64,000 bases of DNA from Chthoniobacterales bacterium (lineage in GTDB: Bacteria; Verrucomicrobiota; Verrucomicrobiia; Chthoniobacterales; UBA10450), in assembly GCA_965217735.1 (NCBI GenBank), contig CBDCJE010000001.1, positions 149,313-213,312 on the forward strand. The letters run 5' to 3'. The position numbers were made by a program, and so were the translations under genes. Below, piece by piece: positions 1 through 64,000 of the stretch (the first letter of the stretch is position 1; each line of letters begins with the position of its first letter). The notes under the pieces were generated by a model. It ran no database searches, had not been told where the DNA came from, and saw only the letters and a list, made by a program, of their open reading frames with translations.

Positions 1-1093
1 GGTAGCCAAATTGGTCGAGGACCAGCTTGCCCACGACATCGAATTTTTTCTCCGCCGCGCCGATGGTGGCGGAACCGGAAGCCTCGATCTGGGGCGGAGC
101 GCGAAAAGAAAAATCCTGCAGGAGCGCGCCGAAACCGAAACTGCCTAACAATGGCCGGAGAGCGACGCTGCTCCGGGCCTGGAAGGTGGCCAGGCCGTCG
201 ACCCGGCTCCAGCTGGCGGTGCCGGCAAAGTGGCCGCCAGCGTCGCTCCATTCCAGCTGTGGAATCGCCAGGGCATGATCTTTCCATTCCGCCGCCAGAA
301 AGAAATCACGCGCCTCGTAATTCTCCCGCACGATGTGCTGGCCGCGCAGAGTCGCCTCGAGGTGAGCGTCCTCCAGTTGCGAGAGGTCGCCGGAAAATTT
401 TACCTGCAACTCCGGCGCCGGGCCGGGATAACGGAATCGCTGCAGCATGGTGACAAGGGTTTGCAGGAGACGCAGGCGGCGGGCCGCTTCCTCGGCTGAA
501 TCGGGCGACGGGCGGTAATCGGCACGCTTGATCAGCTGCCCGCTGGCGGAGATGCGGATGCCGCAGAAGATCCCTTCGGCCTGGCTGACCTCGATCCGTT
601 CCGGCGGGAAATAGACGTGGGCTCGGAAGCGTTGCAGCTCGGCATTCGAGACCTGGCCGGCGACCGGAGGGAGGGGAATGGTGAGGTCGCCGTTGCGGAT
701 GTCGAGGGCGTTAAGGAACGGCTGATGATGGAAGAGGGCGGCGTAATTGATATCGAGCGAGATCTCGCTCACCACCGCCAGGGTGCGCTCGCGGTTCTTG
801 TAATCGTAGATGCGCACATCGCGCGCGATCAGACCACGGAAGGGATCGAGAGTGAGGCGCCGGACCGAGACTTCAATGCCGCGCTTGCGCAGCTCTTCGA
901 CCACTTTATTGCGCCAGTTGCGGCTGAAGCCTTTCCTGGCCACATACCAGCCGCCGGCGATCAAGCCGACCAGGAAAAGGAGGATCACCAGCCGCACGGT
1001 GGTGCGGAGGAGACGGACCCGGGCCGGACGCCGGACGCGGCCGCGATGCAGCCGGCGGGGCGGTGGCGGTTGGGCAAGGGTGGACTCGGGCAT
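1..1093 (-). CDS. Membrane-anchored protein, first 364 codons only (AsmA/TamB-like large envelope protein suspected); continues beyond base 1
   Basis: Own minus-strand translation from ATG 1093-1091: MPESTLAQPPPPRRLHRGRVRRPARVRLLRTTVRLVILLFLVGLIAGGWYVARKG... One TM helix, then a soluble region, with no stop down to base 1 (hence absent from the ORF track). The + ORFs 617..1114 and 810..1130 are its shadows. Confidence 0.55.
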   Translation of the reverse strand, partial: MPESTLAQPPPPRRLHRGRVRRPARVRLLRTTVRLVILLFLVGLIAGGWYVARKGFSRNWRNKVVEELRKRGIEVSVRRLTLDPFRGLIARDVRIYDYKNRERTLAVVSEISLDINYAALFHHQPFLNALDIRNGDLTIPLPPVAGQVSNAELQRFRAHVYFPPERIEVSQAEGIFCGIRISASGQLIKRADYRPSPDSAEEAARRLRLLQTLVTMLQRFRYPGPAPELQVKFSGDLSQLEDAHLEATLRGQHIVRENYEARDFFLAAEWKDHALAIPQLEWSDAGGHFAGTASWSRVDGLATFQARSSVALRPLLGSFGFGALLQDFSFRAPPQIEASGSATIGAAEKKFDVVGKLVLDQFGY

Positions 1094-1170
1094 GGCAGTT
1101 TTAAAGATCGTTGAAGCGTTGAAGAGTTAAAGGGTTGCGGCGATAGACCGATGCAACTTGATCCGCCGCC

Positions 1171-1623
1171 GTGCCTGACATGACCATCGCCGACCTGCCC
1201 GCCATCAATGCCACCTTCAACGCCATCAGCACCGTTTTCATCTCGTTAGGCTGGTGGCTCATCCGGCGCGGGCATTGGCGCCCTCATGTCGCCTGCATGA
1301 TCACCGCTCTGGTTTCCTCGGCTTTTTTTCTCACCGGCTATCTCGTTTACCACTTTTACGCCGGGGAAAAATCGTCCGGTTACCATGGGCTGATCGCCTG
1401 GTTTTATTTCCCCCTGCTCATCTCCCACGTCCTGCTCGCTTTCACCACCCTGCCGCTCGTCATCATGACGCTGATCCCGGTTTTTCGTCGGCGCTGGGAT
1501 AAACACCGGCGGATCGCGCGCTGGACCATGCCGATCTGGCTTTATGTTTCGGTCACCGGGGTGCTGGTTTATTTGGTCCTTTACCAATGGTTCCCACCGG
1601 CCAGTCTTGCGCTCGGGCGCTAG
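1171..1623 (+). CDS. DUF420-family integral membrane protein
   Basis: ORF track, 150 aa. Several hydrophobic helices (INATFNAISTVFISLGWWLIRRG..., FYFPLLISHVLLAFTTLPLVIMTL...). GTG at 1171, first ATG at 1180. Confidence 0.7.
   Translation: MPDMTIADLPAINATFNAISTVFISLGWWLIRRGHWRPHVACMITALVSSAFFLTGYLVYHFYAGEKSSGYHGLIAWFYFPLLISHVLLAFTTLPLVIMTLIPVFRRRWDKHRRIARWTMPIWLYVSVTGVLVYLVLYQWFPPASLALGR
1243..1251 (+). repeat. TCGTTAGGC 9-mer, exact copy
   Basis: In the DUF420 gene, in frame as TCG TTA GGC = Ser-Leu-Gly. Confidence 0.95.
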
Positions 1624-1664
1624 TTGATGTTTCATCACTCACGCCCAAGCAGTGCGGGCATTTT

Positions 1665-3026: not shown

Positions 3027-4004
3027 ATGGATTCGCAACCGCTCGATTTCGAAAAGCCCATCCTGGAACTGCAACGCCGGTTACAGGAGCTCAAGTCCCA
3101 CTCCGATAAGCACGAGATCGATTTCGATTCCGAGGTCGAGTCGATGGAAATCAAGATCCGCGAAACCCGGCGACAGATTTACGACAACCTGACCGCCTGG
3201 CAGCGGGTGCAGATCGCCCGCCATGTGCAGCGGCCGTTCTCGCTTGATTACATCGCCCGCTGTTTCACCGAATGGGTCGAGCTGCACGGCGACCGCGTCT
3301 TTGGCGACGACAGAGCGATGCCTTGCGGCCTGGCCAAAATCGGCAACCAGCGCTGCGTCGTCATCTCGCAACAGAAAGGCCGCGACACCAAGGAAAACGT
3401 GAAGCGCAATTTCGGCTGCGCTTACCCGGAAGGTTACCGCAAGGCGATGCGGGTCATGCGGCTGGGCGAAAAATTCGGCCTGCCCGTCATCGCGCTGATC
3501 GATACCCCGGGCGCTTTTCCCGGGGTCGGCTCGGAGGAACGCCACATCGCCGAAGCCATCGCGGTCAACCTGCGCGAAATGATGACTCTGCGGGTGCCGA
3601 TCATCGCCTGCGTCATCGGCGAAGGCGGCTCGGGCGGCGCGCTCGGGATCGGGGTGGCCGATCGGGTGCTCATTCTGGAAAACGCCTATTACTCCGTCAT
3701 CAGCCCGGAGGCCTGCTCGGCCATTTTGTGGAAGGATCGGAAACACGCGCCGGAAGCCGCCGAAGCGCTCAAGCTCACCGCGGAGGATCTGAAACGGCTC
3801 GGGGTGATCGACGAAATCGTGACTGAGCCGGAGGGCGGCGCGCACCGGGATCATGACCTGGTGGCGGCGAATCTCTGCGCCGCTCTGCGCCGCAACCTGA
3901 AGCGCGCGCTCGACCTGCCGATCGACGACCTGCTGAAGGAGCGCTACAAGAAATTTCGCAAGCTGGGCAACTTTGCCGAACCCCGGGTGCGCAACGGCGC
4001 CTAA
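3027..4004 (+). CDS. accA: Acetyl-CoA carboxylase carboxyltransferase subunit alpha
   Basis: 325 aa. Typical AccA blocks: LDFEKPILEL, WQRVQIARHVQRP, IDTPGAFPGVGSEERHIAEAIA, GEGGSGGALGIGVADRVLILENAYYSVISPE. Confidence 0.95.
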   Translation: MDSQPLDFEKPILELQRRLQELKSHSDKHEIDFDSEVESMEIKIRETRRQIYDNLTAWQRVQIARHVQRPFSLDYIARCFTEWVELHGDRVFGDDRAMPCGLAKIGNQRCVVISQQKGRDTKENVKRNFGCAYPEGYRKAMRVMRLGEKFGLPVIALIDTPGAFPGVGSEERHIAEAIAVNLREMMTLRVPIIACVIGEGGSGGALGIGVADRVLILENAYYSVISPEACSAILWKDRKHAPEAAEALKLTAEDLKRLGVIDEIVTEPEGGAHRDHDLVAANLCAALRRNLKRALDLPIDDLLKERYKKFRKLGNFAEPRVRNGA

Positions 4005-4007
4005 CGA
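3999..4007 (-). repeat. TCGTTAGGC 9-mer, exact copy (GCCTAACGA on +)
   Basis: Contains the accA TAA stop (4002-4004) and, on the other strand, the esterase TAG stop (4003-4001). Confidence 0.95.
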
Positions 4008-4988: not shown

Positions 4989-6005
4989 CTAGGTCAGCAC
5001 ATAGCGGCCGGTCTTCTTCGTCCCCACCCGCCGCACCAGGCCGGCCTTGATCAGCGGCCGGAGCAGATCGAGCGCGCCCTGCTTGGAAATGCCGATCCCG
5101 TCCCAGATCTCACGCGGCGTCAGCGCCTTCTCTTCGCGCAGCAAATGCAGCAGCTGCTCCTGCTTCGGGCGCAGGACGAGCTTCTCTTTCCCGGCCCGGG
5201 CGGTCAGTTTTTGCACCCGGCTCCAGACCCGCTCCAGGGTCGCGCGCAACGCTTCCGCATTGTATTCCAGCCAACTGGTCAGGTCGCCTTTTTCTCGCTC
5301 CACCCGGGCCAGCGCTTCGTAATAACGGGGCCGGTCTTCCCAATAAAATTCGTCGATCGAGAAAAGGTGATGGCCATCGAAGCCGCGCCGATACAGTTCC
5401 CAGAGGCTGAGCATGCGCCCGGTGCGTCCATTGCCATCGGCAAAGGGATGAATGGTTTCGAATTGATGATGGACAATGGCCGAGCTGAGCACGGGCGAAA
5501 GCCGCACCGCCTCCTTGTTCCACCAGCCGAGGAGGGCGGTCATCATCGGCTGCACCCGCTCCGGCGGCGGCGGCACGTAACCACCCACCCGCACCCGGAT
5601 GGTCCGGTATTTCCCGGCTTCGCCCTGGTCCATCACCTCGCCCGCCATGATGCGGTGGAGCTTGAAGACCTCGCGGTGCGCGACCGAGCGCAGCTGGGCG
5701 TTCTTCTCCACAAAGCGCAGGCCGGCAAAATAATTCGCCACCTCCCGCCGGGCGCGTTGCGCGGTGGCCGGAATCTCGCGCCCTTCTTCGATCGCCCGGA
5801 CCTGCTCGAGGGTGAGCGGGTTGCCTTCGATCGCGGTCGAGGAATGGGCATTGCGAATGCGCGTATCCTTCTGCAAAGCCGGGATCCACGGTACCTGCAC
5901 CGCGGCCGCCAGGATGCGCTCGCGCAACGCCGCCACCTGCTCCACTTCCGTCAGCAGCGCCGGGGAGATGATGTAGGGCGGGACGAAGTTCACGGAGTAA
6001 GTCAA
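4989..6005 (-). CDS. Fic/DOC family protein (class II, intramolecular inhibitory motif) with C-terminal winged-helix
   Basis: 338 aa. Fic active-site motif HPFADGNGRTGR. N-terminal STAIEGN matches the (S/T)xxxE(G/N) inhibitory helix. TTG start at 6005 is uncertain. Confidence 0.88.
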   Translation of the reverse strand: MTYSVNFVPPYIISPALLTEVEQVAALRERILAAAVQVPWIPALQKDTRIRNAHSSTAIEGNPLTLEQVRAIEEGREIPATAQRARREVANYFAGLRFVEKNAQLRSVAHREVFKLHRIMAGEVMDQGEAGKYRTIRVRVGGYVPPPPERVQPMMTALLGWWNKEAVRLSPVLSSAIVHHQFETIHPFADGNGRTGRMLSLWELYRRGFDGHHLFSIDEFYWEDRPRYYEALARVEREKGDLTSWLEYNAEALRATLERVWSRVQKLTARAGKEKLVLRPKQEQLLHLLREEKALTPREIWDGIGISKQGALDLLRPLIKAGLVRRVGTKKTGRYVLT

Positions 6006-6165: not shown

Positions 6166-7128
6166 ATGAAAAAAATCGGGATTCTTTACGGCCAGGAACA
6201 CAGCTTTCCACCTGCCTTCGTCGAACGCGTCAACGCCAAAACCGGCGGCCACGAGATCATGGCCGAGCCGGTCCGGATCGACAAAGTGATCCAGGGCGAA
6301 GCCGTCGGCTACGATGTCGTCATCGACCGCATTTCGCAGGATGTTCCTTTCTATCGCGCCTGGCTCAAGAACGAAGCCAGCACCGGCTGCGCCGTGGTCA
6401 ACAACCCGTTTTGGTGGAGCGCGGATGAGAAGTTTTTCAACAACGCCCTCGCGACCAAGATCGGCGTGGCCGTGCCAAAAACCGTCCTGCTTCCTTCGCA
6501 CTCGCTTCCGCCCGACACCAGCGACGGCTCTTTCCGTAATCTGGCTTATCCGCTGGATTGGAACGCCATCTTCGCCTACGTCGGCTGGCCGGCTTACTTC
6601 AAACCGTTCGCCGGCGGCGGCTGGAAAAACGTCTACAAGCTCAACAACCCCGACGAATTTTTCCGCGCCTACAGCGAGACCGGTCAGCTCGTCATGATGC
6701 TGCAGGAGGAAGTGCAATTTCAAATGTATTTCCGCTGCTACTCGGTCGATCAGCGCCACGTCCGGGTGATGAATTACGAGCCGCGGCACCCTTACCATCT
6801 CCGTTACCAGACCGACTGGCAGGCTCCGCGCGAGATCCTGGAAAAGGTCGAGCAGGGCGTGCTCGCCTTGAACCAATACCTCGGCTACGACCTGAACACG
6901 GTTGAGTTCGCCATCCGCGACGGCGTCCCGCTGGCGATCGACTTCTGCAATCCGGCGCCCGACGCCGAGATCGCCTCAGTCGGTCAGGCCAACTTTGACT
7001 GGGTGGTGGAAGCCGTCTCGGAAATGGCCATCCGCAAAGCGCGCGAACACGTCCCCGGCCGCGACAACCTGACCTGGGGCAAATTCCTCCAGGCCGCGGT
7101 CAATCAAAAATCGTTAGGCGAGGTCTAA
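6166..7128 (+). CDS. ATP-grasp domain protein (RimK/glutathione-synthetase-like)
   Basis: ORF 6103..7128 trimmed to ATG 6166 (MKKIGILYGQEHSFPPAFVERV...). ATP-grasp-like core: PKTVLLP, YFKPFAGGGWKNVYKL, EFAIRDGVPLAIDFCNP. Confidence 0.7.
   Translation: MKKIGILYGQEHSFPPAFVERVNAKTGGHEIMAEPVRIDKVIQGEAVGYDVVIDRISQDVPFYRAWLKNEASTGCAVVNNPFWWSADEKFFNNALATKIGVAVPKTVLLPSHSLPPDTSDGSFRNLAYPLDWNAIFAYVGWPAYFKPFAGGGWKNVYKLNNPDEFFRAYSETGQLVMMLQEEVQFQMYFRCYSVDQRHVRVMNYEPRHPYHLRYQTDWQAPREILEKVEQGVLALNQYLGYDLNTVEFAIRDGVPLAIDFCNPAPDAEIASVGQANFDWVVEAVSEMAIRKAREHVPGRDNLTWGKFLQAAVNQKSLGEV
7112..7120 (+). repeat. TCGTTAGGC 9-mer, exact copy
   Basis: ATP-grasp gene, Ser-Leu-Gly, five codons before the stop. Confidence 0.95.
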
Positions 7129-8466: not shown

Positions 8467-8475
8467 TCGTTAGGC
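8467..8475 (+). repeat. TCGTTAGGC 9-mer, exact copy
   Basis: Intergenic, 5 nt after the sucB stop. Confidence 0.95.
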
Positions 8476-8654: not shown

Positions 8655-10061
8655 ATGGATAAATTCGACGTCATCATCATCGGCTCCGGCCCCGGCGGCT
8701 ATGTCGCCGCCATCCGCGCCGCTCAACTCGGGCTCAAAACCGCCATCATCGAAAGATATCCTGATCTCGGCGGCACCTGCCTCAACGTCGGCTGCATCCC
8801 GAGCAAGGCGCTCCTGGCCTCGAGCGACCACTTCGTTTTCGCCAAAAAAGACGCGGCCAAACACGGCATCGTGCTGGACAAAGTGAGCCTCGATCTCAAG
8901 ACGATGCTGGCCCGCAAGGACAAGGTGGTAAAAACCCTCACCGGCGGCGTGCGCGCACTGATGAAGGGCAACAAAGTCACCACCTTCGCTGGCCGCGGCA
9001 CCATCATCGAGCCGGGTAAAGTGCGGATTCAGCCTAACGAGGGCGAGCCAATCGAGATCGCGGCCGACCACATCGTCATCGCGACCGGCAGTGTCCCGAT
9101 CGACCTCCCGAGCATGCCATTCGACGGCGAAACCATCGTCAGCAGCACCGAGGCGCTCTGCTTCGAGAAGCCGCCGGAAAAATTTCTTGTCGTCGGCGCG
9201 GGCGCGATCGGGCTCGAGCTTGGCTCGGTCTGGAGCCGGCTGGGCTCCGAGGTGACGGTGCTCGAATTTTTGCCTCGTATCGCGGTCGGTTTTGACTTGG
9301 AAATGGCCAACCTGCTCCAGCGCGCCCTCACCGCCCAGGGGATGAAGTTTCATCTCGAAACCAAAGTCGGCTCGATCAAGGTGACCGATGGCCGGGCCGT
9401 GGCCAGCGCGAGCAAAGGCGGCGAGGAAATCACTTTCGAAGCGGACAAGGTGCTGGTCTCGGTTGGCCGGCGCGCCTTTGCCGAAGGCGTAGGCGCGGAC
9501 AAAGTCGGGGTGGCGCTGGACGAACGGGGCCGGGTCAAAGTCGATGAAACCTACCGGACCAACATCGAAGGCATCTATGCGATCGGCGACGTCATCGTCG
9601 GCCCGATGCTGGCGCACAAGGCGGAGGAAGAAGGCATCGCCTGCGTCGAGCTGATCGCAGGCAAGGCCGGGCATGTGAACTACGACGTCATTCCCGGCAT
9701 CATCTACACCAATCCCGAGCTGGCCGGAGTCGGGATCACGGAGGATTTCGCGAAGGAAAAAGGGCTGAAAGTGCGGGTGGGCAAATTCCCCTTCCGCGCC
9801 AACGGCCGCGCCCTGGCGAACGACGACGCCGAAGGATGGGTAAAATTCATCGCCGATGCCGAGTCCGACCGCATTCTCGGGGCCTCGATTCTTTCCCATG
9901 CCGCCTCCGAACTCATCGCCGAGATCGTGGCGGTGATGGAATTCGGCGGGAGCAGCGAAGACCTCGGCCGCACCGTGCACGCGCACCCGACCTTGAGCGA
10001 AGCGGTCAAGGAGGCCGCCCTCGCAGTGGAGAAGCACGCCATCCACATCGGCAATCGCTGA
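8655..10061 (+). CDS. lpdA: Dihydrolipoyl dehydrogenase (E3)
   Basis: 468 aa. FAD motif [13 protein letters not shown], redox disulfide [14 protein letters not shown]-terminal HAHPTLSE. Confidence 0.95.
9032..9040 (-). repeat. TCGTTAGGC 9-mer, exact copy (GCCTAACGA on +)
   Basis: In lpdA, read as CCT AAC GAG = Pro-Asn-Glu. Confidence 0.95.
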
Positions 10062-10073: not shown

Positions 10074-10442
10074 ATGGCCGAGGAAGAGAAGGCGAAAAAG
10101 GTTTCCGGGGCGGAGGAATACGTCTCGGCCGAGGTCGCGCTGGCGGAGCCACTCGATCCGGAGCAGGAGAAAGCCTTGCGCGATGCGCTGGAGAATTTGG
10201 ATGAGCGAGCCTTTGGCTCCTTCGACATCGGCGCGAAAAGACTCTCCTTCTCCTATGACCCGACCCGCACTTCCAAGAAGCAGCTGCTCGATTTCATCCG
10301 ACAGGCCGGAGGCAAACCCGGGCAGGTGGAGAGCGGAGGTTCGCCGCTGCTGCAGGAAGCCGAGGACCGTCCGCTGGGCGGCGCTACCTTAACGCAGGCC
10401 GAGATCGGCGCGGCTGGTGCGGGCGAAGCGGAAGCCGCCTAG
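10074..10442 (+). CDS. Hypothetical acidic protein downstream of lpdA
   Basis: 122 aa. GC-rich third positions through most of the ORF. The last 54 nt overlap the 3' end of the convergent methyltransferase gene. No recognisable motif. Confidence 0.45.
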   Translation: MAEEEKAKKVSGAEEYVSAEVALAEPLDPEQEKALRDALENLDERAFGSFDIGAKRLSFSYDPTRTSKKQLLDFIRQAGGKPGQVESGGSPLLQEAEDRPLGGATLTQAEIGAAGAGEAEAA

Positions 10443-11534
10443 CGTTCCCTCGAATTTCCTGACCAGGCCGAGGAATTGAAATTTCAAACCGAGGAATTCG
10501 GGATGAATCAGGGTCTGCAGGGCGCGACTTTTCTCCGCGCCCGCGGAAGCCAGCTCGGGATGGCTGCTGAGCAGACCGGTGAGGAAATGGTGCTGATCGG
10601 CAAACCCAGCCAGGGCCAGACCGCATTCTTCCGCCCGTTCGGTCAGGCTGGTCCATTCCACGTGGGTGGTGAGGTCGCTCTGGCCGACCCGTTCCAGGAG
10701 GGACGGCAGGACTCGATGTTCGGCATAGCATTGCAGAGTGCCGGTGCGGCGGCTCGGAGCATAGAATTCGTCCCGCGGCAGACCGTAATCGGCGATGAGA
10801 ATGACGCCGGCCTGCAGCTTTCCGGCGAGAGTTTCGATCCAGTCCAGCATGGCCAGATTGACCTCGGTTTCGTAGCCCTCCAGCGGCGGGAAAGGGATTT
10901 TCGTTAGGCGAGCCTGCAGCCGCGGGTCGGTGATCGGGCGATCGACAAAGGTAAACCCGCAGGAGGTGCGCTCGACCAGCCGCTCGCTCCAGCGATAGCC
11001 CTGGCCTTCACGCCGGGTGACGAGCAGGCGCACCGGCATGGCGTCGAGCAGCTCATTGGAAAAATGGACGCCGCGAAACGGTGTCATCTCCTCGAGCGAT
11101 CCGACCCATTCGGTCTGCCTTAGAAAAGGCCGCAGGACCCCGAGCTGTCGTTCGCGCAGGAGGGCGAAAGGCTCGACGATGCGATACCGCATCCTGGCAA
11201 AAAGATCCGGCTCTTGCTCCCGCAGAGCTTCCAGCACGTCGTGGGCAAATTCCCCGTGGTGCGCCCCCTGTTCCACAATCACGAAATCTCCCGGGCGCCC
11301 CATCATTTCCCAAATCTCGGCAAACTGCCCGGCGAGCATTTTGCCAAAGAGCGGACCGACGCTGACGCTGGTGAAATAATCGCCGTGCCGTCCGATGGCG
11401 CAGCGCCCCGAGCTGTAGTAGCCGTGGCGCGGATGGTAGAGCGCCTGCTCCATAAACCAGGAGAATGGGACCGGGCCGCGCCGGCGGATCCCGTCTCGAA
11501 TTTCGTGAATCAGCTCGCCATTCTCTTCGTCCAT
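10389..11534 (-). CDS. SAM-dependent methyltransferase, MidA/NDUFAF7 (DUF185) family
   Basis: 381 aa. PVPFSWFMEQALYHPRHGYYSS, DFVIVEQGAHHGEFAHDVL, ILIADYG: blocks typical of the family. Confidence 0.8.
   Translation of the reverse strand: MDEENGELIHEIRDGIRRRGPVPFSWFMEQALYHPRHGYYSSGRCAIGRHGDYFTSVSVGPLFGKMLAGQFAEIWEMMGRPGDFVIVEQGAHHGEFAHDVLEALREQEPDLFARMRYRIVEPFALLRERQLGVLRPFLRQTEWVGSLEEMTPFRGVHFSNELLDAMPVRLLVTRREGQGYRWSERLVERTSCGFTFVDRPITDPRLQARLTKIPFPPLEGYETEVNLAMLDWIETLAGKLQAGVILIADYGLPRDEFYAPSRRTGTLQCYAEHRVLPSLLERVGQSDLTTHVEWTSLTERAEECGLALAGFADQHHFLTGLLSSHPELASAGAEKSRALQTLIHPEFLGLKFQFLGLVRKFEGTLGGFRFARTSRADLGLR
10901..10909 (+). repeat. TCGTTAGGC 9-mer, exact copy
   Basis: In the minus-strand MidA-like gene, read as CTA ACG = Leu-Thr. 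Confidence 0.95.
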
Positions 11535-15220: not shown

Positions 15221-15279
15221 GGCGGGCGCTTCGCCTGCCGAGATCGACCAACTGCGCAGGCGAAGCGCCCGCTCTACAA
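15215..15279. terminator. Long palindromic element / bidirectional hairpin at a convergent gene junction
   Basis: Arms TTGTAGGGCGGGCGCTTCGCCTG (15215-15237) and CAGGCGAAGCGCCCGCTCTACAA (15257-15279), 22/23 complementary. The TAG stops of both flanking genes lie inside the arms. Confidence 0.6.
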
Positions 15280-18577: not shown

Positions 18578-18580
18578 CGA
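18572..18580 (-). repeat. TCGTTAGGC 9-mer, exact copy (GCCTAACGA on +)
   Basis: Supplies the efp TAA stop. The next gene's ATG (18581) abuts it. Confidence 0.95.
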
Positions 18581-19393: not shown

Positions 19394-19421
19394 GGCCGGC
19401 GCGCCTTTCAGAAGGAGCCGT

Positions 19422-46874: not shown

Positions 46875-46883
46875 TCGTTAGGC
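46875..46883 (+). repeat. TCGTTAGGC 9-mer, exact copy
   Basis: Intergenic, between the divergent aminotransferase and glycerate kinase genes. Confidence 0.95.
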
Positions 46884-54107: not shown

Positions 54108-54866
54108 ATGGGAGTTATGCAATGGACAGGATGGATCTTGGGGTTGCTCCTTTGCGGGTGGGGCAGTGGGTGCGCGAGCTTGCCTAACCAGAAATCGGCT
54201 GATTTCACCGCAGGGCGGCGTTCCTTCCGCAGCGGCGGCGAGAAGATCCTGGTCGATGTCTACACGCCAAAGGCCGCGGGCCGCCATTCGCCCGTCCTGG
54301 TGCTGCATGGCGCGGGCGGGATGCTCTTCGATGGACCGGAGATGACGCGAGTGGCGCAGGCTTTGGCAGCGGCTGGGTTCGAGGCCTACCAAGTTCATTA
54401 TTTCGATCGCACTCACACCTGGTTTGCGCGCCAGGCGGTCTTGCTAAAACTTTTTCCAACTTGGCGTGAGACGGTGCACGATGCGGTCGGATGGGTGCGC
54501 GCGCAGCAGCCAGAGGCGAAGGCGGTGGGAATTTTTGGCTATTCGTTAGGCGCGTTTGCCGCGATCGAGGAAGCGCGAGTCAATCCGGCCGTCGGCGCAG
54601 TGGTGGAAGAGGCGGGCGGCTTCTGGAATGGCCATCCGGAAGGCCCCACGCGTCACCCCTTGCCGCCGCTGCTGGTCATCCACGGCACGGCGGACACGCG
54701 CGTGCCTCAGCAGAAATACACTCAGCCGTTGCTGGAGTATCTCCGGAGGAACCGGGAGCGATTCGAGAAGCAGTTCTACCCGGGCGAAGGTCATGAGTTC
54801 TCCGCTCCGGCGCGAGCCAGGGTGCGGGCGCAGGCGGTCGATTTTTTCCGGCGCCACCTGCGCTGA
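54108..54866 (+). CDS. Alpha/beta hydrolase (dienelactone hydrolase / peptidase S9-like), probable lipoprotein
   Basis: 252 aa. LLLCGWGSGC signal; nucleophile elbow GYSLGA; VIHGTADTRVP; GEGHEF. Confidence 0.8.
   Translation: MGVMQWTGWILGLLLCGWGSGCASLPNQKSADFTAGRRSFRSGGEKILVDVYTPKAAGRHSPVLVLHGAGGMLFDGPEMTRVAQALAAAGFEAYQVHYFDRTHTWFARQAVLLKLFPTWRETVHDAVGWVRAQQPEAKAVGIFGYSLGAFAAIEEARVNPAVGAVVEEAGGFWNGHPEGPTRHPLPPLLVIHGTADTRVPQQKYTQPLLEYLRRNRERFEKQFYPGEGHEFSAPARARVRAQAVDFFRRHLR
54543..54551 (+). repeat. TCGTTAGGC 9-mer, exact copy
   Basis: In the hydrolase gene, Ser-Leu-Gly of the nucleophile elbow GYSLGA. Confidence 0.95.
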
Positions 54867-54889: not shown

Positions 54890-57646
54890 TTAGAGGTTGA
54901 AGGCGTCCTCGATGACGCAGGCCTGCTCGCGCTTGTGCAAAGCAAGCGCGCCGACCGCCGGGCTGGCGCTGGCGTTGCGCCCGGCATAAACAATCTCCCT
55001 GCCTAACAATGCCCGCAGACGCGGCTCGATGTAGGTCCAGGCGCCCATGTTTTGCGATTCTTCCTGGCACCAGACGATCTTCTGCGCCTGGGCAAAGGGC
55101 TCGAGCGCGGCGAGCAGTTTCTCTTCCGCCAGCGGGTAGAGCTGCTCCAGCCTAACGATGGCCGCGGTTTCGATTTTTTCCTCGCTGCGGTGGTTGAGCA
55201 GGTCGTAGTAAACCTTGCCCGAGCAGAGGATGACCCGCTCGATCTTCTCCCGCGCGCCCACTTCCGGCCCGGGCAGGATTTCGGAGAAACTGCCTTCCAG
55301 AAAATCCTCCGCCCGTGAAGCAGAGTGCTCGGAACGGAGCAGGCTTTTCGGCGTCATGATGATGAGCGGCTTGATGAAATCCCGTTTCATCTGCCGGCGC
55401 AGGACGTGAAAATATTGCGCCGCGGTGGTGAGATTGCAGACCTGGATATTGTCCTCCGCGCAGGCCTGAAGAAAGCGCTCCAGCCGGCCGCTGGAATGTT
55501 CCGGCCCCTGTCCCTCGTAGCCGTGCGGCAGGAGCAGGACGATGCCGCTCGGGCGCTGCCATTTCGATTCCGCCGAGACGATGAACTGATCGATAATGGT
55601 CTGCGCGCCATTGGCGAAATCGCCAAACTGCGCTTCCCAAAGGCAAAGCATGTTGGGGAAATCGAGCGAGTAACCGTAATCGAACCCGAGCACCGCGGCC
55701 TCGGAGAGCAGGCTGTTATAGATGCAGATGCGGGCCTGGTCGGGCGCGAGATGGAGCAGCGGCAGATACGGTTTGCCGGTTTTCGCGTCGTAAAGAAAAG
55801 CGTGGCGATGGCTGAAGGTGCCGCGCCGGCTGTCCTGCCCCGACAGGCGCACCGGCACGCCCTCGAGCAGGAGCGAGCCAAAGGCCAGCGCCTCGGCAAA
55901 ACCCCAATCGTAGGGCCCGCCGGCTTTGTAGACTTCGCGCTGCCGATCGATTGTGATTCGTTTCACTTTGGGCAGGATGTTGAAATCCTCCGGCACCTTC
56001 GTCAGGCCATCGACGATCTGTTTCAGCGTCTCGGCCGAGATCGCGGTCGGGCGCGTTTGGCTGCTGTATTTTGGTTGAAAGACCGCGGTCGATTCGCGGA
56101 AGCGATCCTTCTGCTCGGCCCGCTCTTTCTCGATCGATTTCACCTCGTCCAGCGTCATTTCGAGGCGGAGTTCAAACTCCGCTTCGAGCGATGCGGCGTC
56201 GTCTTCGCTCAGGACACCGGACCCCAGCAGCTCCTTCTTATAAAGCTGCGCGACGGACGGGCGCTTGGCGATTTTGGCGTAAAGATCGGGCTGAGTGAAA
56301 AGCGGTTCGTCCCCTTCGTTATGCCCGTAGCGCCGGTAGCAATACATGTCGATGACCACGTCGCGGCCAAATTTCTGGCGAAAATCGAGCGCGGTTTCGG
56401 TCACGAATTTTACCGCGATCGGGTCGTCCCCGTTCACGTGGAAGATTGGGACCTCGATCATCTTGGCGATATCGGTCGCATACATGGAGGAGCGGGCGTC
56501 CTCCGGCAAAGTGGTGAAGCCGATCTGATTATTCACCACCACATGGACGGTGCCGCCGGTGCTGTAGCCGTGCAGTTGCGACATGTTGAGCACTTCCGAG
56601 ACAATCCCCTGGCCGGCAAAAGCGGCGTCGCCATGGACGAGGAGCGGGAGCACCTTGCGCCGATGCTCGGTGTCGCCGCGGATGCGCTGACGAGCGCGCG
56701 CGATCCCTTCCACCACCGGATCGACCGCTTCGAGATGGCTCGGGTTGGCCGCGAGGCGCAGCTCCACTTCCGCCCCGCCACTGAGCTTGCGCACGGTGCG
56801 ATAGCCGAGGTGATATTTCACGTCGCCGTCGCCCGCCACCAGCTCGGGGACAAAGTTGGTACTGAATTCGGTGAAGATCACCTTGAGCGATTTCTGCAGG
56901 AAATTGGCCAGCACATTGAGCCGGCCGCGATGGGCCATGCCCATGCAGATTTCCTCGATCCCGTCGCCCGGGCAGCGATGCAGAATAGTGTCGAGAATGA
57001 TCATGAGCGATTCCGCGCCCTGGAGCGAAAACCGCTTCTGCCCGACGTAGCGGGTGTGCAGGAAAACCTCGAACGCTTCCGATTCCAGCAGCACCCGCAG
57101 GAGCGCGATCTCGACCTGGGTAGAGGCCTGGTGTTTGGCCGGACGCGACTCGATTCGGTCGCGCACCCAATTCCGCAGGCGCGGATTCTGGATGTGCTGG
57201 AATTCCGCTCCGATCGAGTCGGCGTAGATTTCCTGCAGGCGCGCGATCATGTCGCGCAGAGTCATCCTTTTTTTATCGAGAAAGAAATTCGACGAGACCT
57301 GGAGATCGAGATCCTTCTCGCTGAAGCCGAGCTCGCGCAGGGTCAGGAGCGGGTTGGTCGGGCGGCGCTCGGCCAACGGATTCACCCGCGCGATGGTGTG
57401 GCCGAGGGTGCGATAGGCGTAAACCAAGCCATCGATCCGGGTCTGGAGCGGGCTTTCGCGCCCGGCAGCCGGAGCGGCCGTGGCGGTGGCGGTGGCGGCG
57501 CCGTTGCGCTGCGGGGTGTTGCCCAGCTCGAAGCCCTCGAAAAAGGCGCGCCAGGTCGCATCGACTGAATCGGGATCGGTCTCCCAGCGACGATAGTTTT
57601 CATCAATCAGATCGAGATTGCCGCGGGTGGCGAAGGAAGGGCGCAT
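54890..57646 (-). CDS. sucA: 2-oxoglutarate dehydrogenase E1 component
   Basis: ORF 54890..57682 trimmed to ATG 57646 (MRPSFATRGNLDLIDENYRRW...). MGMAHRGRLNVL, HGDAAFAGQG, CYRRYGHNEGDEP, LLPHGYEGQGPEHSS. Confidence 0.93.
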   Translation of the reverse strand: MRPSFATRGNLDLIDENYRRWETDPDSVDATWRAFFEGFELGNTPQRNGAATATATAAPAAGRESPLQTRIDGLVYAYRTLGHTIARVNPLAERRPTNPLLTLRELGFSEKDLDLQVSSNFFLDKKRMTLRDMIARLQEIYADSIGAEFQHIQNPRLRNWVRDRIESRPAKHQASTQVEIALLRVLLESEAFEVFLHTRYVGQKRFSLQGAESLMIILDTILHRCPGDGIEEICMGMAHRGRLNVLANFLQKSLKVIFTEFSTNFVPELVAGDGDVKYHLGYRTVRKLSGGAEVELRLAANPSHLEAVDPVVEGIARARQRIRGDTEHRRKVLPLLVHGDAAFAGQGIVSEVLNMSQLHGYSTGGTVHVVVNNQIGFTTLPEDARSSMYATDIAKMIEVPIFHVNGDDPIAVKFVTETALDFRQKFGRDVVIDMYCYRRYGHNEGDEPLFTQPDLYAKIAKRPSVAQLYKKELLGSGVLSEDDAASLEAEFELRLEMTLDEVKSIEKERAEQKDRFRESTAVFQPKYSSQTRPTAISAETLKQIVDGLTKVPEDFNILPKVKRITIDRQREVYKAGGPYDWGFAEALAFGSLLLEGVPVRLSGQDSRRGTFSHRHAFLYDAKTGKPYLPLLHLAPDQARICIYNSLLSEAAVLGFDYGYSLDFPNMLCLWEAQFGDFANGAQTIIDQFIVSAESKWQRPSGIVLLLPHGYEGQGPEHSSGRLERFLQACAEDNIQVCNLTTAAQYFHVLRRQMKRDFIKPLIIMTPKSLLRSEHSASRAEDFLEGSFSEILPGPEVGAREKIERVILCSGKVYYDLLNHRSEEKIETAAIVRLEQLYPLAEEKLLAALEPFAQAQKIVWCQEESQNMGAWTYIEPRLRALLGREIVYAGRNASASPAVGALALHKREQACVIEDAFNL
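55150..55158 (-). repeat. TCGTTAGGC 9-mer, exact copy (GCCTAACGA on +)
   Basis: In sucA (minus), read as ATC GTT AGG CTG = Ile-Val-Arg-Leu. Confidence 0.95.
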
Positions 57647-60913: not shown

Positions 60914-62410
60914 ATGGCTGAAGAGACCACTCCCGCGACCAAGCCAAAGAAGATTCACCGATTCCAGATCGGCCTGAACGTCCTGGTCCAGGTCGCGATC
61001 GTCATCGTCCTGGCCGCGATGGTGAACTATCTCGGCTTTGAGCATTACAAGCGGTGGGACCTTTCGCGGGATAAGAAGTATCAGCTCTCGGACAAGACAA
61101 AGCATTTCCTCGACAGCATCAAGGGTAAGGTGCGGATTACTGTTTTCTTCGGCTCGCAAAATCCGATCACGGGCGACGTGCAAAATCTGCTGACCGAGTA
61201 TCAATACGCTTCGCACGGAAAGATCGACGTCGAATATGTCGATCCGGAACGCAACCTCACGAGGGCGAAGGAACTCTTCGATAAGTATAAGGTGGTCACG
61301 GATGAGAGTGTGCTCATCGTTGATTACGAAGGGCGAAGTAAGACGGTCAAAGCCTCGGAGATGGCCGAGATGGATCAGGGAAATCCGCTCTCCGGCGAAG
61401 GTCCCAAGGTCACCGCCTTTAAGGGTGAACAGGCCATCACCAGCGCGCTGATCGACGTGGTGGAAGGGAAGAAAAACACCGTTGGCTACATCATTGGACA
61501 CAAGGAACCCGCGCTCAGCGGCGAAAGCCCGATCTCGATCCTGAAGACCTTTATTGAGAACGAAAACGTCAAGTTCCAGGAGCTGAATCTGTTCGAAGTG
61601 CCAGCCATTCCGGCCAACATCAAGGTGGTCATGATCGCCGGCCCGCAGTACGACTTCTCCGATCGGGAGATGAAGATGCTGCGCGATTTCTGGAACAAGG
61701 ACGGGCGCATTCTGCTCCTGGTCGATCCGGCGGCGAAGACGCCGAAACTGCTTGGCTTCCTGAACGAGCTCGGGGTAAAAGTGGATGACGATCGGCTCAT
61801 GGCGATGGTTAAAACCGGGATCGAGGAAGTGGCCCGGGTGCGCGATGTGGTGGCCCATTTTCTGCCCGATATTCCGGTCACGACACGCCTCGCCGGCGTG
61901 CAGGCGCCGTTCTTCGGCTCGACCAGCACGCTCACTCTCGATTCGCAGGGCGTGGCCGCGGCTAACATTCATCTCAGCCCGCTGGCCGAAGCCGAAAAGG
62001 GCTACTGGGGCGAACGCGATTATAACTCAGAGGACGAAGCGCTGCTCCAGTTCGACCCGAGCAAGGATAAGGGCGATCCCCTCATCATCGCGGCCGCGGT
62101 CGAGAAAGGCGGCAGCGCCGACGCGCGCGTCCAGATCAACTCCGCCCGCCTGGTGGTGATCTCGAATTCCACCTTCATCCATGACAACGCGCTGACCCAG
62201 GGCCAGCAGGGACTCGACCTTATTTCGGCCAGCATTAATTGGCTGCTCAGCCGCGAACAATTGATTGGAATCGCGCCCAAGATTCCGCAAACGCTCACTT
62301 TCACCTTGAGCGAGCAGGCGCTGCGCAGCCTGCGCTGGATCGTCCTCGTCCTCATGCCGCTGGTCCCGGCGGTTCTTGGGCTCTTCGTTTGGTGGCGGCG
62401 CCGCGCCTAA
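60914..62410 (+). CDS. GldG-like auxiliary component of ABC-type transport system
   Basis: 498 aa. N- and C-terminal TM anchors flank a large soluble domain. Position directly after the GldA/GldF-like genes. Confidence 0.72.
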   Translation: MAEETTPATKPKKIHRFQIGLNVLVQVAIVIVLAAMVNYLGFEHYKRWDLSRDKKYQLSDKTKHFLDSIKGKVRITVFFGSQNPITGDVQNLLTEYQYASHGKIDVEYVDPERNLTRAKELFDKYKVVTDESVLIVDYEGRSKTVKASEMAEMDQGNPLSGEGPKVTAFKGEQAITSALIDVVEGKKNTVGYIIGHKEPALSGESPISILKTFIENENVKFQELNLFEVPAIPANIKVVMIAGPQYDFSDREMKMLRDFWNKDGRILLLVDPAAKTPKLLGFLNELGVKVDDDRLMAMVKTGIEEVARVRDVVAHFLPDIPVTTRLAGVQAPFFGSTSTLTLDSQGVAAANIHLSPLAEAEKGYWGERDYNSEDEALLQFDPSKDKGDPLIIAAAVEKGGSADARVQINSARLVVISNSTFIHDNALTQGQQGLDLISASINWLLSREQLIGIAPKIPQTLTFTLSEQALRSLRWIVLVLMPLVPAVLGLFVWWRRRA

Positions 62411-62413
62411 CGA
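62405..62413 (-). repeat. TCGTTAGGC 9-mer, exact copy (GCCTAACGA on +)
   Basis: Supplies the TAA stop of the GldG-like gene, 7 nt before the next ATG. Confidence 0.95.
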
Positions 62414-62419
62414 ATCCGC

Positions 62420-64000
62420 ATGAAGACACGGACCACGCTCATCCTTCTCCTCTTGGCCATCGCCCTCGGGGTCTGGATCAAGTTTGTCGAAAGCAAGAAG
62501 CCAAATACGGTTGAGGCCCGGCGACAGTCCGGAAACGTGGTTAATTTCGATCGCGAAAAGCTGACCGGGATCGTGATTCAAAACGGCGACGACCGGATCG
62601 AGCTGCAACGCGAGGAAGGGAAATGGCGCCTGACCCAGCCGGTGAAGGACCAGGCCGACAGCGGGGCAGTGGACAACCTGATCAGCGACATCGAAAGCTG
62701 GCACAAGGAAGGCGAAATCCCGGCCAATCAGGTCACGGCCGATAAAGCCCGGATGAAAGAATTTGGCCTGCTGCAACCGAAGCTTCGCCTTCGCCTGGTC
62801 GCGCCCGACGCGCCGCCGGAGATCTTCTTCGGCAAGGACACGGCTTTCGAAGGGCAGATGTATGTGCGCTTTGCTAATTCCAACGATGTCCTGATCGCGA
62901 CCCAGAATGTGCGCAACGACCTCTCGAAAAAGCCGGATGATTTCCGCGATCGCAAGCTGACTGACCTAACGACCGCGCAAGTGACCCGGGTGGTGGTGAA
63001 AAGTCCGGCGGGCGAGATCGAGCTGGCGAAGCGAAATGAGCACTGGGAAATCGTGAAACCGCTCCAGGCGCGTGGCGACGACCAGAAGATTTTCGATCTC
63101 CTCGCCCAGGTGACAAACGCGCGCATCCAGGAATTCATCGGCGAAGACAAAGGCGACCTGCACGCCTACGGCCTCTCCGAGCCGCGCGGCTCCATCACCG
63201 TCTACGGCGCCGACGACAAGACCGGCCACACTCTGCAGATCGGGAGCGCGGCGGAGAAGATCAAAGACGCGGTCTACGCCCGCTATCAGCCGCGCAGCGC
63301 GGTTTACGCCCTGCCGAAGAAAATTGAGGACCTGCTCACGACCAAGCCTAACGATCTCCGCGATCGCCATCTGGTGCGGCTGGATCTGAACAATCTCGAC
63401 CGGATCCACCTCGAGGCGGCCGGCCAGCCCAAGATTGTTCTCGCGCGCAAGGATCAGAGCTGGACCATCGCCAGCCGCAATAACGAACCGGCCAACAGCG
63501 ACGAAGTGCGCCGGTTACTCGAGACCCTGAACGAAGAGCAGGTGAGCAAGTTCGTCGCTGATACCGCCACCGATCTGCCCAAGTACGGCCTCGACCAGCC
63601 GCAATTGCAATTGATGTTCAGCTCCTTCGCCTCCGAAAACACGGCCGAGACGGGCGCGGGCGAGCATCCCTTTCTCACTCTCTCCTTTGGCAAGACCGAG
63701 GGCGACGAAGTCTACGCCCGGGTCGGTGAGGAACCATTCATCGTCGCGGTGAAAAAGAGCCTGCTGGGCAAGATCTGGACCGATCCGCTGCAATGGCAGG
63801 CCCTGCCGATCTTCAAGTTGAAGCCGAACGAGATCCATCGCGTCTCGCGCGTGACCGAGCGGGAGGAATCGCTCGAGCGCAACGGGAAGAAGGATTGGAA
63901 ATGGATCAAAGGCGAAGGTGCCATCGATACCAACGATGTTGAATCGCTCCTCAACACCCTCGCCTCCCTTCGCGCCGTGCGCTGGGTGGGCACGACCAAA
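62420..64000 (+). CDS. DUF4340-domain protein, 3'-truncated by the window edge
   Basis: Own translation from ATG 62420: MKTRTTLILLLLAIALGVWIKFVESKKPNT... Open for 527 codons to base 64000 (no stop, so not in the ORF track). Repeated W..l.P....ad...v..ll pattern. Usual partner of GldG-like genes. Confidence 0.65.
   Translation, partial: MKTRTTLILLLLAIALGVWIKFVESKKPNTVEARRQSGNVVNFDREKLTGIVIQNGDDRIELQREEGKWRLTQPVKDQADSGAVDNLISDIESWHKEGEIPANQVTADKARMKEFGLLQPKLRLRLVAPDAPPEIFFGKDTAFEGQMYVRFANSNDVLIATQNVRNDLSKKPDDFRDRKLTDLTTAQVTRVVVKSPAGEIELAKRNEHWEIVKPLQARGDDQKIFDLLAQVTNARIQEFIGEDKGDLHAYGLSEPRGSITVYGADDKTGHTLQIGSAAEKIKDAVYARYQPRSAVYALPKKIEDLLTTKPNDLRDRHLVRLDLNNLDRIHLEAAGQPKIVLARKDQSWTIASRNNEPANSDEVRRLLETLNEEQVSKFVADTATDLPKYGLDQPQLQLMFSSFASENTAETGAGEHPFLTLSFGKTEGDEVYARVGEEPFIVAVKKSLLGKIWTDPLQWQALPIFKLKPNEIHRVSRVTEREESLERNGKKDWKWIKGEGAIDTNDVESLLNTLASLRAVRWVGTTK
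63346..63354 (-). repeat. TCGTTAGGC 9-mer, exact copy (GCCTAACGA on +)
   Basis: In the DUF4340 gene, Pro-Asn-Asp. Confidence 0.95.

Follow-up and report, generated by a model that had tools for sequence, protein, structure and literature searches.

The DNA analysed here (the window, 64,000 nt from a MAG of Chthoniobacterales, phylum Verrucomicrobiota) carries 31 exact copies of the 9-mer TCGTTAGGC (complement GCCTAACGA), 17 on the plus and 14 on the minus strand, spread over unrelated housekeeping genes. TCGTTAGGC is most likely a lineage-specific, genome-wide 'self' word of an uncultured soil clade of Chthoniobacterales that would enhance DNA uptake, and it appears to behave like the 'self-recognition' uptake sequences so far known only from relatives of Neisseria and Haemophilus.

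Abundance and sequence context

Dinucleotide shuffles of the window gave an expectation of 0.34 ± 0.57 copies and an order-3 Markov model 0.45, compared with the 31 observed, an over-representation of about 60–70-fold above chance that places TCGTTAGGC first among the over-represented 9-mers of the 64 kb. The hyper-abundance asserted in a preliminary description of this DNA holds under the higher-order background model, where the ratio of observed to expected is far from 1, and gene annotation agrees with the dispersal across housekeeping genes described there; three coordinates had been mistyped (7112, 40102 and 43902, correctly 7111, 40103 and 43892). Pooling the window with five relatives (172 kb) gave 101 copies (1.5 expected), and 19 unlinked soil-metagenome contigs (142 kb) carried 127 (2.2 expected), with TCGTTAGGC again the top 9-mer.

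Neither the 31 window sites nor the full set of 74 non-orthologous sites share related flanks, in agreement with the earlier view that no longer repeat is involved, and 16 of the 31 window copies show the weak preference noted then, a T at position −1 (equivalent to an A following GCCTAACGA). These unrelated flanks exclude confinement to one mobile element, and the idea that the copies stem from mobile or repetitive DNA, or from errors of assembly or basecalling, is effectively refuted: copies lie in frame within conserved housekeeping genes and recur across projects and pipelines (ENA, NCBI, JGI; contig names of several assembler styles). REP, BIME and MITE elements likewise occur as numerous dispersed copies, but they exceed TCGTTAGGC in length, have conserved flanks and are mostly palindromic and located between genes, whereas TCGTTAGGC comprises nine conserved bases and lies within genes in about 90% of cases.

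Copies with at most one mismatch number 67 in the window (10.7 expected). Of these, 36 are one-mismatch copies dispersed over nt 1–64000; all 24 listed previously were recovered, although that list fell short of the total. The main forms are TCGTTAGGG (eight), TTGTTAGGC (six) and TCGTCAGGC (five). Because positions 3, 4, 6 and 7 (G, T, A, G) are near-invariant and C2→T was seen 17 times while G3→A, the same CpG mutation on the opposite strand, was seen 0 times, the spectrum seemingly points to recognition specificity rather than decay. A mutational or mismatch-repair bias (VSP-like, or biased gene conversion) that turns near-cognates into functionless copies in any DNA replicating in these cells would fit the enrichment of one-mismatch relatives, the origin of copies from near-cognate precursors (TCGTCCGGC or GTG-CGC, for instance), and the presence of the word in both host and phage DNA. 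It is nevertheless improbable, as a 9 bp specificity matches no known repair system, the substitutions go from GC to AT against a genomic GC content of 62%, some gains require three separate substitutions (e.g. GTGCGC to GTTAGG), the mismatch spectrum differs between CpG strands, and amino-acid replacements are tolerated to spell the word.

Reading frames and coding constraints

Every stop-free frame is occupied by TCGTTAGGC, and none of the 31 window copies lies in a stop-creating frame within a gene, as had been stated. The frame table given earlier is exact once the 215-aa hypothetical ORF at nt 39506–40153 (−) is counted as a gene, as it is annotated in relative L082. Eight copies read Ser-Leu-Gly (TCG-TTA-GGC). 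They are found on the sense strand of a DUF420 gene (nt 1243–1251, +; gene 1171–1623, +), close to the 3′ end of a hypothetical gene (7111–7119, +; gene 6166–7128, +), in treY (20316–20324, −; gene 19422–22262, −), in a peptidyl-prolyl isomerase gene (28526–28534, +; gene 28475–30238, +; missing at the same site in L081 and L082), in a DEAD/DEAH helicase gene (37129–37137, −; gene 36106–38508, −; kept in L081 and L085), in the 215-aa ORF (40103–40111, −; kept in 5/5 relatives), in a glycerate kinase gene (46989–46997, +; gene 46953–48059, +) and in a dienelactone hydrolase gene (54543–54551, +; gene 54108–54866, +).

The Pro-Asn-Glu/Asp frame accounts for ten copies. The copy in lpdA (9032–9040, −; gene 8655–10061, +; G-CCT-AAC-GA, Pro-Asn-Glu) corresponds to CCG-GAC (Pro-Asp) in outgroup L003, and that in a DUF4340 gene (63346–63354, −; gene 62420–64000, +; Pro-Asn-Asp) to CCA-AAC-GA in outgroup L002. 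A GT4 glycosyltransferase gene (15839–15847, +; gene 15274–16368, −; kept in L084) also encodes Pro-Asn-Asp here. The others specify Pro-Asn-Glu: two in treY (20086–20094 and 21217–21225, both +), one at the 3′ end of tpiA (30302–30310, +; gene 30298–31065, −; kept in L081 and L082), and one each in an NHL/SGL beta-propeller gene (41680–41688, −; gene 40826–41797, +), a hypothetical gene (44242–44250, +; gene 43299–44495, −; kept in L082 and L085) and a Peptidase_M29 gene (52206–52214, +; gene 51281–52306, −; kept in L082), while the copy at 36019–36027 (+) overlaps the start of a PAD_porph (agmatine deiminase-like) gene as ATG-CCT-AAC-GAA and is kept in L083, L084 and L085.

Four copies read Leu-Thr: in a Methyltransf_28 gene (10901–10909, +; gene 10389–11534, −; GC-CTA-ACG-A), in the helicase gene (37740–37748, +; shared with L082 alone, with CTS-ACG or CTC-GCG in the others), in kbl (42948–42956, −; gene 42005–43189, +; kept in L082 and L083) and in the same hypothetical gene as above (43892–43900, +; kept in L082, L084 and L085). 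Three are in the xVRx frame (Val-Arg). Two of these are in the helicase gene, at 37206–37214 (−; T-TCG..., GTT-AGG), where motif-free relatives have GTC-CGG, and at 37995–38003 (−), a site kept in 5/5 motif-bearing relatives and read as Ile-Ser or Val-Ser in outgroups; the third is in sucA (55150–55158, −; gene 54890–57646, −; GTT-AGG), where relatives have GTG-CGG. Four genes of the window terminate in GCC-TAA-CGA, namely accA (copy 3999–4007, −; gene 3027–4004, +), efp (18572–18580, −; gene 18050–18577, +), kbl (43184–43192, −) and a GldG-like gene (62405–62413, −; gene 60914–62410, +). The two intergenic copies lie 5 nt past the stop of a 2-oxoacid dehydrogenase E2 gene (8467–8475, +) and between an aminotransferase gene and the glycerate kinase gene (46875–46883, +).

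Synonymous-codon shuffling, which preserves the proteins and codon usage of each gene, predicts 1.03 ± 1.01 copies within CDS compared with 24 observed, bearing out the DNA-level selection proposed earlier. Ser-Leu-Gly is written TCG-TTA-GGC in 7 of 13 tripeptides where codon usage predicts 0.4%, TTA making up 2.3% of Leu codons, and the word fills 8 of 14 Ser-Leu-Gly and 10 of 14 x-Pro-Asn-Glu/Asp contexts despite rare codons. The 14 occurrences of the peptide x-P-N-[E/D] compare with 2.9 expected, an excess of about 5-fold, and across compatible peptide contexts the occupancy is 25–70%. Outgroup orthologues reveal both synonymous and amino-acid changes that spell TCGTTAGGC. Because all stop-free frames are used, rare-codon spellings are common and genes end in GCC-TAA-CGA, selection at these sites is on DNA and not on protein.

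Conservation among relatives

The five relatives (73–82% nucleotide identity; independent ENA and JGI metagenome assemblies) carry TCGTTAGGC at 0.4–0.9 per kb. Exact conservation at orthologous sites is 43–71%, compared with 11–18% for background 9-mers (3–6 times background; Fisher p 0.02 to 0.0001). Both gain and loss of sites are evident, and presence among relatives is patchy, with eight different positions in one helicase gene. Sister lineages at about 70–74% identity have only 0–3 copies per 22 kb, and the word has a sharp phylogenetic boundary. The 'dialects' that the preliminary description had proposed looking for were not found in these sister lineages.

Strand, spacing and comparison with other genomic words

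The orientation of 17:14 in the window has no switch point, and orientation across 18 independent loci is not heterogeneous beyond chance (chi-square 17.9 on 18 df); a local strand skew of 75:25 is rejected at P = 0.0009, which agrees with the strand symmetry seen initially. Chi (RecBCD/AddAB) and KOPS (FtsK) are polar 5–8-mers that are modestly enriched and strongly skewed towards the leading strand. They resemble TCGTTAGGC as short words over-represented in core genes, but TCGTTAGGC has a 60–70-fold excess and lacks the skew. Spacing is random (exponential; CV 0.99, KS p = 0.99) and density is equal in intergenic and coding DNA. None of the 101 copies in the window and the five relatives forms a close inverted pair, and none of nine window copies that were folded (three then called intergenic, four at stop codons, two near gene ends) showed a terminator-like hairpin.

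The cyanobacterial octamer HIP1 (GCGATCGC), the function of which is debated (PMC5861425), provides another precedent, and TCGTTAGGC could be selected for binding or modification inside the cell rather than for uptake, the protein involved being, for instance, an orphan modification enzyme or a factor that organises the nucleoid or chromosome. The strong excess (15–300-fold for HIP1), site conservation above background, clade-wide distribution and lack of a peptide, RNA or regulatory role are common to both (PMC5861425); the missing terminator association also fits, and tight clusters of TCGTTAGGC in a few unrelated phage contigs resemble protein-binding sites. This explanation is unlikely, though less so than a repair bias. 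HIP1 is palindromic, lies inside methyltransferase sites (GATC and CGATCG) and is periodic at 10–90 kb, whereas TCGTTAGGC is an asymmetric 9-mer, longer than typical methyltransferase sites and randomly spaced at the 64 kb scale of the window; an exact 9-mer once per 1–2 kb matches no known nucleoid protein. Recent work reportedly links HIP1 to transformation as well (bioRxiv 10.1101/2024.09.10.611283; bioRxiv 10.64898/2026.06.24.733823), the latter proposing that it aids the process.

Phage contigs

Four phage contigs of the same Chthoniobacterales clade also contain TCGTTAGGC. Contig L246 has nine dispersed copies in 12 kb (4+ and 5−) and codes for a lambda-type terminase, portal, S49 protease and capsid protein, the terminase being identical to that of a Chthoniobacterales MAG; three related contigs have 4–6 copies each. 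Densities in these clade phages are 0.24–0.74 per kb, while at least 50 related phages have none, as might be expected if TCGTTAGGC were a broadly Chi-like 'self' marker that a nuclease, helicase or defence system recognises and that phages copy to escape degradation. Such a role is hard to credit given the balanced orientation in the window, the rejected 75:25 skew and the copies on both strands of L246. In addition, the Haemophilus temperate phage HP1 holds 17 USS cores in 32 kb (0.28 expected), and thus phage carriage of such a word needs no defence role.

A proposed uptake-type signal

There is perhaps an even chance that TCGTTAGGC is a signal of the uptake-sequence type that accumulated through biased uptake and recombination, a role suggested by its DUS- and USS-like properties. 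A shared word with a sharp boundary, conserved sites, unlinked loci and no Chi/KOPS-type skew are hallmarks of such signals. The DUS of Neisseriaceae (GCCGTCTGAA and dialects) are bound by the minor pilin ComP. Like them, TCGTTAGGC is a short non-palindromic word in huge excess, with about one copy per 1–2 kb, equal on both strands, avoiding stop-creating frames and common to related species; it differs in sequence, in the phylum of its host and in having no inverted-repeat pairs, terminator association or observed dialects. The USS of Pasteurellaceae (AAGTGCGGT / ACAAGCGGT) likewise have a 9-mer core with weak flank preferences, are mostly tolerated in coding regions, where they shape tripeptide usage, and occur in a temperate host phage near host density (HP1 as above; nine in 12 kb for TCGTTAGGC in L246). 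TCGTTAGGC is unrelated to USS in sequence and lacks terminator enrichment, and no AT-rich helically phased flanks were detected at its sites. About half of DUS and USS are within terminators, often as inverted pairs. The uptake interpretation offered initially is partly supported: its sequence-level properties all hold, this typical enrichment is absent and the uptake function is putative.

In the proposed mechanism, a sequence-specific receptor of the transformation machinery, putatively a minor pilin of a type IV pilus by analogy with Neisseria ComP, would bind double-stranded DNA bearing the 9-mer, so that conspecific fragments carrying it would be preferentially taken up and recombined. 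Mutations creating TCGTTAGGC at permissive positions would be passed on in excess (molecular drive) and retained thereafter. Recognition of the duplex would be independent of orientation, and copies would therefore accumulate equally on both strands. A search of the window plus 320 kb of DNA from the clade, a sample far too small to be informative, found no pilin or PilT signature, and the literature searched contained neither a report of natural transformation in Chthoniobacterales nor an earlier description of TCGTTAGGC as a genomic signal.

DUS and USS, 9–10-mers with hundreds to thousands of copies, keep out of stop-creating frames and have been described in two families only (bioRxiv 10.1101/2025.10.24.684340). 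If the uptake reading is true, TCGTTAGGC would represent a third uptake-sequence family, unrelated to both DUS and USS.

Abundance, spacing and strand distribution

The 64 kb window holds 31 copies of the 9-mer TCGTTAGGC (core GTTAGG), its complement included: 17 on the plus and 14 on the minus strand, the same total and split as in the preliminary description. The coordinates reported there stand except for three that were 1–10 bases off, and these are corrected to 7111, 40103 and 43892. The large excess is real: dinucleotide-preserving shuffles of the window gave an expectation of 0.34 copies (maximum 2), and it persists at the scale of the window under a higher-order background (0.45 copies, order-3 Markov model). 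The window has 0.48 copies per kb and related genomes 0.4–0.9, a 60–70-fold excess, which extrapolates to ~2,000 copies per 4 Mb genome. It is the top over-represented 9-mer of the window, and the next ranks are taken by its own sub-words and one-base extensions. When up to one mismatch is allowed, the window carries 67 copies compared with 10.7 expected; the 24 one-mismatch variants previously claimed are all present, and 12 further ones were found.

As had been described, the copies lie outside any longer repeat. The flanks of the 31 window copies are unrelated, the sole visible preference being a T at position −1 (16/31), and 29 of them lie in or overlap genes. Together with the lack of a palindrome, this effectively excludes an origin as mobile elements or dispersed repeats of the REP/MITE type. 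Spacing within the window is random-like (mean 2,070 bp, CV 0.99, KS p = 0.99 against an exponential distribution), the intergenic density of the word is about the same as its coding density, and orientation along the window shows neither runs nor a switch point. The lack of strand bias extends beyond the window, as strand counts over 18 independent loci fit a fair coin (chi-square 17.9, 18 df). A polar motif of the Chi/KOPS type is effectively ruled out, since strong leading-strand co-orientation is absent and a local 75:25 skew is rejected over the same 18 loci (P = 0.0009).

The window contains ordinary chromosomal housekeeping genes, including accA, 2-oxoacid dehydrogenase E2, lpdA, PBP1A, efp, treY, argS, tpiA, pgk, gap, a DEAD/DEAH helicase gene, kbl and sucA, and no RNA genes were found in it by Rfam and tRNA scans. 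Its best matches are Chthoniobacterales MAGs (Verrucomicrobiota), one of which encodes a SucA with 85% identity, and homologues of the helicase carry the labels Chthoniobacterales or Spartobacteria. A small '23S rRNA intervening-sequence protein' gene is located between gap and pgk (nt 32,282–32,775). It is enclosed by inverted hexamer arrays, with GAGCAC/GATCAC/GATTAC repeats to one side and CGTGCT repeats to the other, which could pair as a long stem. The arrangement is kept in relatives (L083, nt 15,093–15,190 and 15,595–15,610; L086, nt 5679–5740 and 19,143–19,610) and resembles an IVS-like cassette put into an operon.

Selection at the DNA level

Reading frames were judged against our own gene calls, with a 215-aa ORF counted as a gene since it is called as one in the syntenic locus L082 of a relative. 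The copies use all four stop-free frames, both in each orientation. They read Ser-Leu-Gly in eight cases, x-Val-Arg-x in three, Pro-Asn-Glu/Asp in ten and Leu-Thr in four, while another four supply a true stop codon (GCC-TAA-CGA) and two are intergenic, counts that are identical to those of the preliminary description. Its proposal that pressure acts on the DNA and not on the peptide is also borne out, by the use of every stop-free frame and by a within-gene synonymous codon shuffle, which left 1.03 ± 1.01 copies in coding sequences compared with the 24 observed.

The spelling TCG-TTA-GGC is found in 7 of 13 Ser-Leu-Gly tripeptides, where codon usage predicts 0.4%, and TTA makes up 2.3% of the Leu codons. 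The word is present in 10 of 14 compatible x-Pro-Asn-[Glu/Asp] contexts, a peptide that is itself about 5-fold over-represented (14 versus 2.9), and four of five Ala-stop gene ends are spelled GCC-TAA-CGA. Given these occupancies, the word has filled much of the sequence that could accommodate it, and it has altered the proteome. Stop codon usage in the window (56 approximate gene calls) is TAG 24, TAA 21 and TGA 9, unusual at 62% GC, and four of the TAA stops come from the 9-mer.

Conservation in relatives and the boundary of the clade

Five syntenic loci, taken from ENA and JGI assemblies that are independent of one another, have the word in common, and an artefact is effectively excluded. 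It occurs 10 times in L081 (17.8 kb), 16 in L082 (22.4 kb), 9 in L083 (22.4 kb), 21 in L084 (22.5 kb) and 14 in L085 (22.5 kb, part of a 4.02 Mb circular contig). Window and relatives together hold 101 copies against 1.5 expected. The five relatives are 77–81% identical to the window over aligned stretches, and pairwise identity among the six genomes in the helicase gene is 73–82%. In sister lineages at 70–74% identity the word is nearly absent (~22 kb per lineage), with no copies in L086 (70% nucleotide identity in the helicase gene), L002 or L003, and three in L087. The latter, at nt 952, 3164 and 11,298, compare with 0.2 expected in 22 kb; every GTTAGG hexamer of L087 is a full 9-mer, and window site 37,206 is the orthologue of one of the copies. 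Introgression of this helicase copy was considered and rejected, as local identity to the motif-bearing clade is not raised there. Within L081–L085, the word has a density of 0.76 per kb in segments with a window counterpart and 0.40 in those without one, a weak hint, not relied on here, that accessory DNA may be poorer in it.

Between 43 and 71% of alignable window sites are exactly conserved in the related genomes, compared with 11–18% of background 9-mers (Fisher p 0.02 to 0.0001). There is also turnover: the helicase gene has eight distinct motif positions over the six genomes, in patchy combinations. Genomes without a given copy there show near-cognate synonymous spellings (GTC-CGG or GTG-CGC for GTT-AGG), and some differ in the amino acid, for example with Ser in place of the Arg of motif-bearing genomes. 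The window version of this gene (nt 36,106–38,508; DEAD/DEAH, Hel308/Lhr-like, repair-type) carries four copies, which recalls the debated bias of DUS and USS, the uptake sequences of Neisseriaceae and Pasteurellaceae, to genome-maintenance genes, although the case here is anecdotal.

Site conservation beyond background also speaks for the main rival to an uptake signal, which is that the word is selected for an intracellular role in the manner of HIP1, the hyper-abundant palindrome of cyanobacteria; HIP1 has the same statistics (PMC5861425). However, HIP1 is a palindromic octamer in orphan methyltransferase sites and TCGTTAGGC is no palindrome. HIP1 itself is now tied to transformation in recent preprints (10.64898/2026.06.24.733823 and 10.1101/2024.09.10.611283).

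Tolerated mismatches and flanks

One-mismatch variants pooled from the six genomes differ at positions 1, 2, 5, 8 and 9, with positions 3, 4, 6 and 7 (G, T, A and G) near-invariant and hence the predicted contact bases. The variants TTGTTAGGC, TCGTTAGGG and TCGTCAGGC occur 17, 19 and 12 times, respectively. C2→T accounts for 17 variants and G3→A, the same mutation on the opposite strand, for none. This pattern suggests the tolerance profile of a putative reader protein, and not mutational decay. A context-specific repair bias as the source of the word is possible at low probability, as is a role as a defence marker of 'self' DNA. The context of the 9-mer carries little information: over 74 non-orthologous sites, position −1 leans weakly to T and positions +10 and +12 to purines, and these preferences were not reproduced in pooled metagenome loci. 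Flank dialects between lineages were likewise not upheld, as the numbers are too small and the pooled loci show no preference.

Occurrence in unlinked metagenome loci and phages

A scan of JGI metagenomes for inverted pairs of the word returned 80 loci, most of which are unrelated longer palindromes with just the two seeded copies. Nineteen are motif-rich soil contigs (142 kb, GC 0.54–0.66) with 89 copies besides the seeded pair, on average ~1 per 1.6 kb, a density biased upward as contigs were chosen for at least four copies. Strand use is 50:39, and the word is again the top 9-mer. The inverted pairs in these loci are chance neighbours, with unrelated flanks and variable spacers. Despite the selection bias, the richness of 19 unlinked contigs in the word shows that it is genome-wide and clade-wide, and not confined to the region of the window. 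A conserved palindrome of ~48 nt carries the 9-mer in both arms, in the form GATGATGGGTCGTTAGGCACAC...GTGTGCCTAACGACCCATCATC, with seemingly compensatory changes between the arms. It is present on metagenome contigs L096, L105, L109, L110, L111, L116, L117, L123, L126, L131, L134, L136, L143, L153, L154 and L165, from unrelated high-GC organisms (GC 0.68–0.74), and had no Rfam match at six of these loci.

The word is also carried by phages. Genes for a lambda-type large terminase, portal, S49 head protease and major capsid protein are present on the IMG/VR contig L246 (12.1 kb, GC 0.61), which has nine dispersed copies (four plus, five minus); an identical terminase is encoded by a contig assigned to the Chthoniobacterales MAG GCA_036267855.1. 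Among 61 other IMG/VR contigs with related terminases, L258, L270 and L297 have 5, 6 and 4 copies, respectively, and the remainder none or one. HP1, a temperate phage of Haemophilus influenzae that served as a control, has 17 exact USS cores in 32.4 kb (0.28 expected). A true uptake sequence therefore shows like carriage in phages, which makes the phage finding neutral or mildly favourable to an uptake signal. A prophage in a long host contig (L319, P0158) has no copies, though its host may itself lack the word. Viral scans for word pairs gave matches at about chance level, nearly all to unrelated low-GC viruses or tandem repeats, and only L246 was informative. Two lower-GC viral contigs hold tight clusters of the exact word: IMGVR_UViG_3300036832_000197 (GC 0.48; L229, nt 11,807–12,651, and L221, nt 12,957–12,976) has four copies in a 0.85 kb stretch and a tandem pair besides, and IMGVR_UViG_3300010366_000067 (L244, nt 3683–3910) has four within 220 bp. 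These clusters look like protein-binding-site arrays, and may be a coincidence of scan selection or a hint that some protein reads the word. The IMG/VR phage contigs L273, L274 and L275 show clusters of inverted GTGACTG heptamers at several intergenic positions and 19 copies of GTGACTGGT in 14 kb, which is not a dispersed word.

Comparison with known uptake sequences

To our knowledge, sequence-specific uptake of self DNA has for decades been known in two proteobacterial families only. The DUS of Neisseriaceae and the USS of Pasteurellaceae arise by biased DNA uptake followed by recombination (10.1101/2025.10.24.684340). TCGTTAGGC is closest in kind to these: they too are non-palindromic words of 9–12 bp that number hundreds to thousands per genome, far above expectation (here 60–70-fold), used equally on both strands without replication polarity (17:14 in the window), under DNA-level pressure that avoids stop frames in genes, and common to related species (here five relatives at 73–82% identity). 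It differs from them in genomic placement. About half of DUS/USS copies lie in transcription terminators (literature value), often as inverted-repeat pairs, whereas no close inverted pairs occur among the 101 copies of window and relatives, and no terminator-like hairpins were found at intergenic or stop-codon copies. Neighbouring lineages of the known systems have dialects, while none was found in the sister lineages here (~22 kb each). Candidates for such dialects, the k-mer excesses of L003, L006, L086, L273–L275, L293, L294 and L297, were traced to tandem repeats in proteins, simple repeats or terminator hairpins and are not dispersed words. The word is, moreover, unrelated in sequence to GCCGTCTGAA or AAGTGCGGT, and its host belongs to the Chthoniobacterales (Verrucomicrobiota). 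Because of these differences it fits neither the DUS nor the USS family.

Biased uptake with recombination is the only established route to an asymmetric 9–12-mer that recurs about once per kb in either orientation, uses every permissive frame and is common to related species. For this reason an uptake-type signal is ranked first as the reading of TCGTTAGGC, and from the sequence patterns described, we would call it an even bet. The known systems combine preferential uptake or transformation by word-bearing DNA with a dedicated receptor (ComP, or the predicted minor pilin ComN/PpdA) and competence machinery. Competence and pilus genes were absent from the window, and none turned up when 320 kb of clade DNA was scanned by regular expression, a sample too small to inform. 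Full-text literature searches for TCGTTAGGC gave, among the matches listed, only papers on unrelated subjects, and nothing relevant was found on uptake sequences or competence in Verrucomicrobia or Chthoniobacterales. As far as these searches show, it is an undescribed hyper-abundant genomic word in a new phylum. The further claim, that it may represent a third, independently evolved DNA-uptake-sequence system, the first outside Proteobacteria, in an uncultured and widespread clade of soil Chthoniobacterales, is put forward tentatively, at somewhat short of an even chance.

A robust DUS/USS-like imprint in uncultured soil Verrucomicrobia would bear on whether uptake of self DNA is an isolated curiosity or a common strategy. 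It would add a new phylum, and soil bacteria that are free-living, to the known cases, and would predict natural transformation in a lineage not yet grown. Motif-bearing and motif-free sister genomes that are only a few per cent divergence apart would offer a clean comparison in the search for a receptor, and the word could serve as a sequence tag to assign metagenomic contigs and phages to the clade. Even if its role is not uptake, a conserved asymmetric 9-mer that fills a large share of compatible codon contexts and reshapes tripeptide usage needs a new explanation. If a third uptake system is true, the clade would be naturally transformable and recognise its own DNA, by a signal that it shares with its temperate phages.
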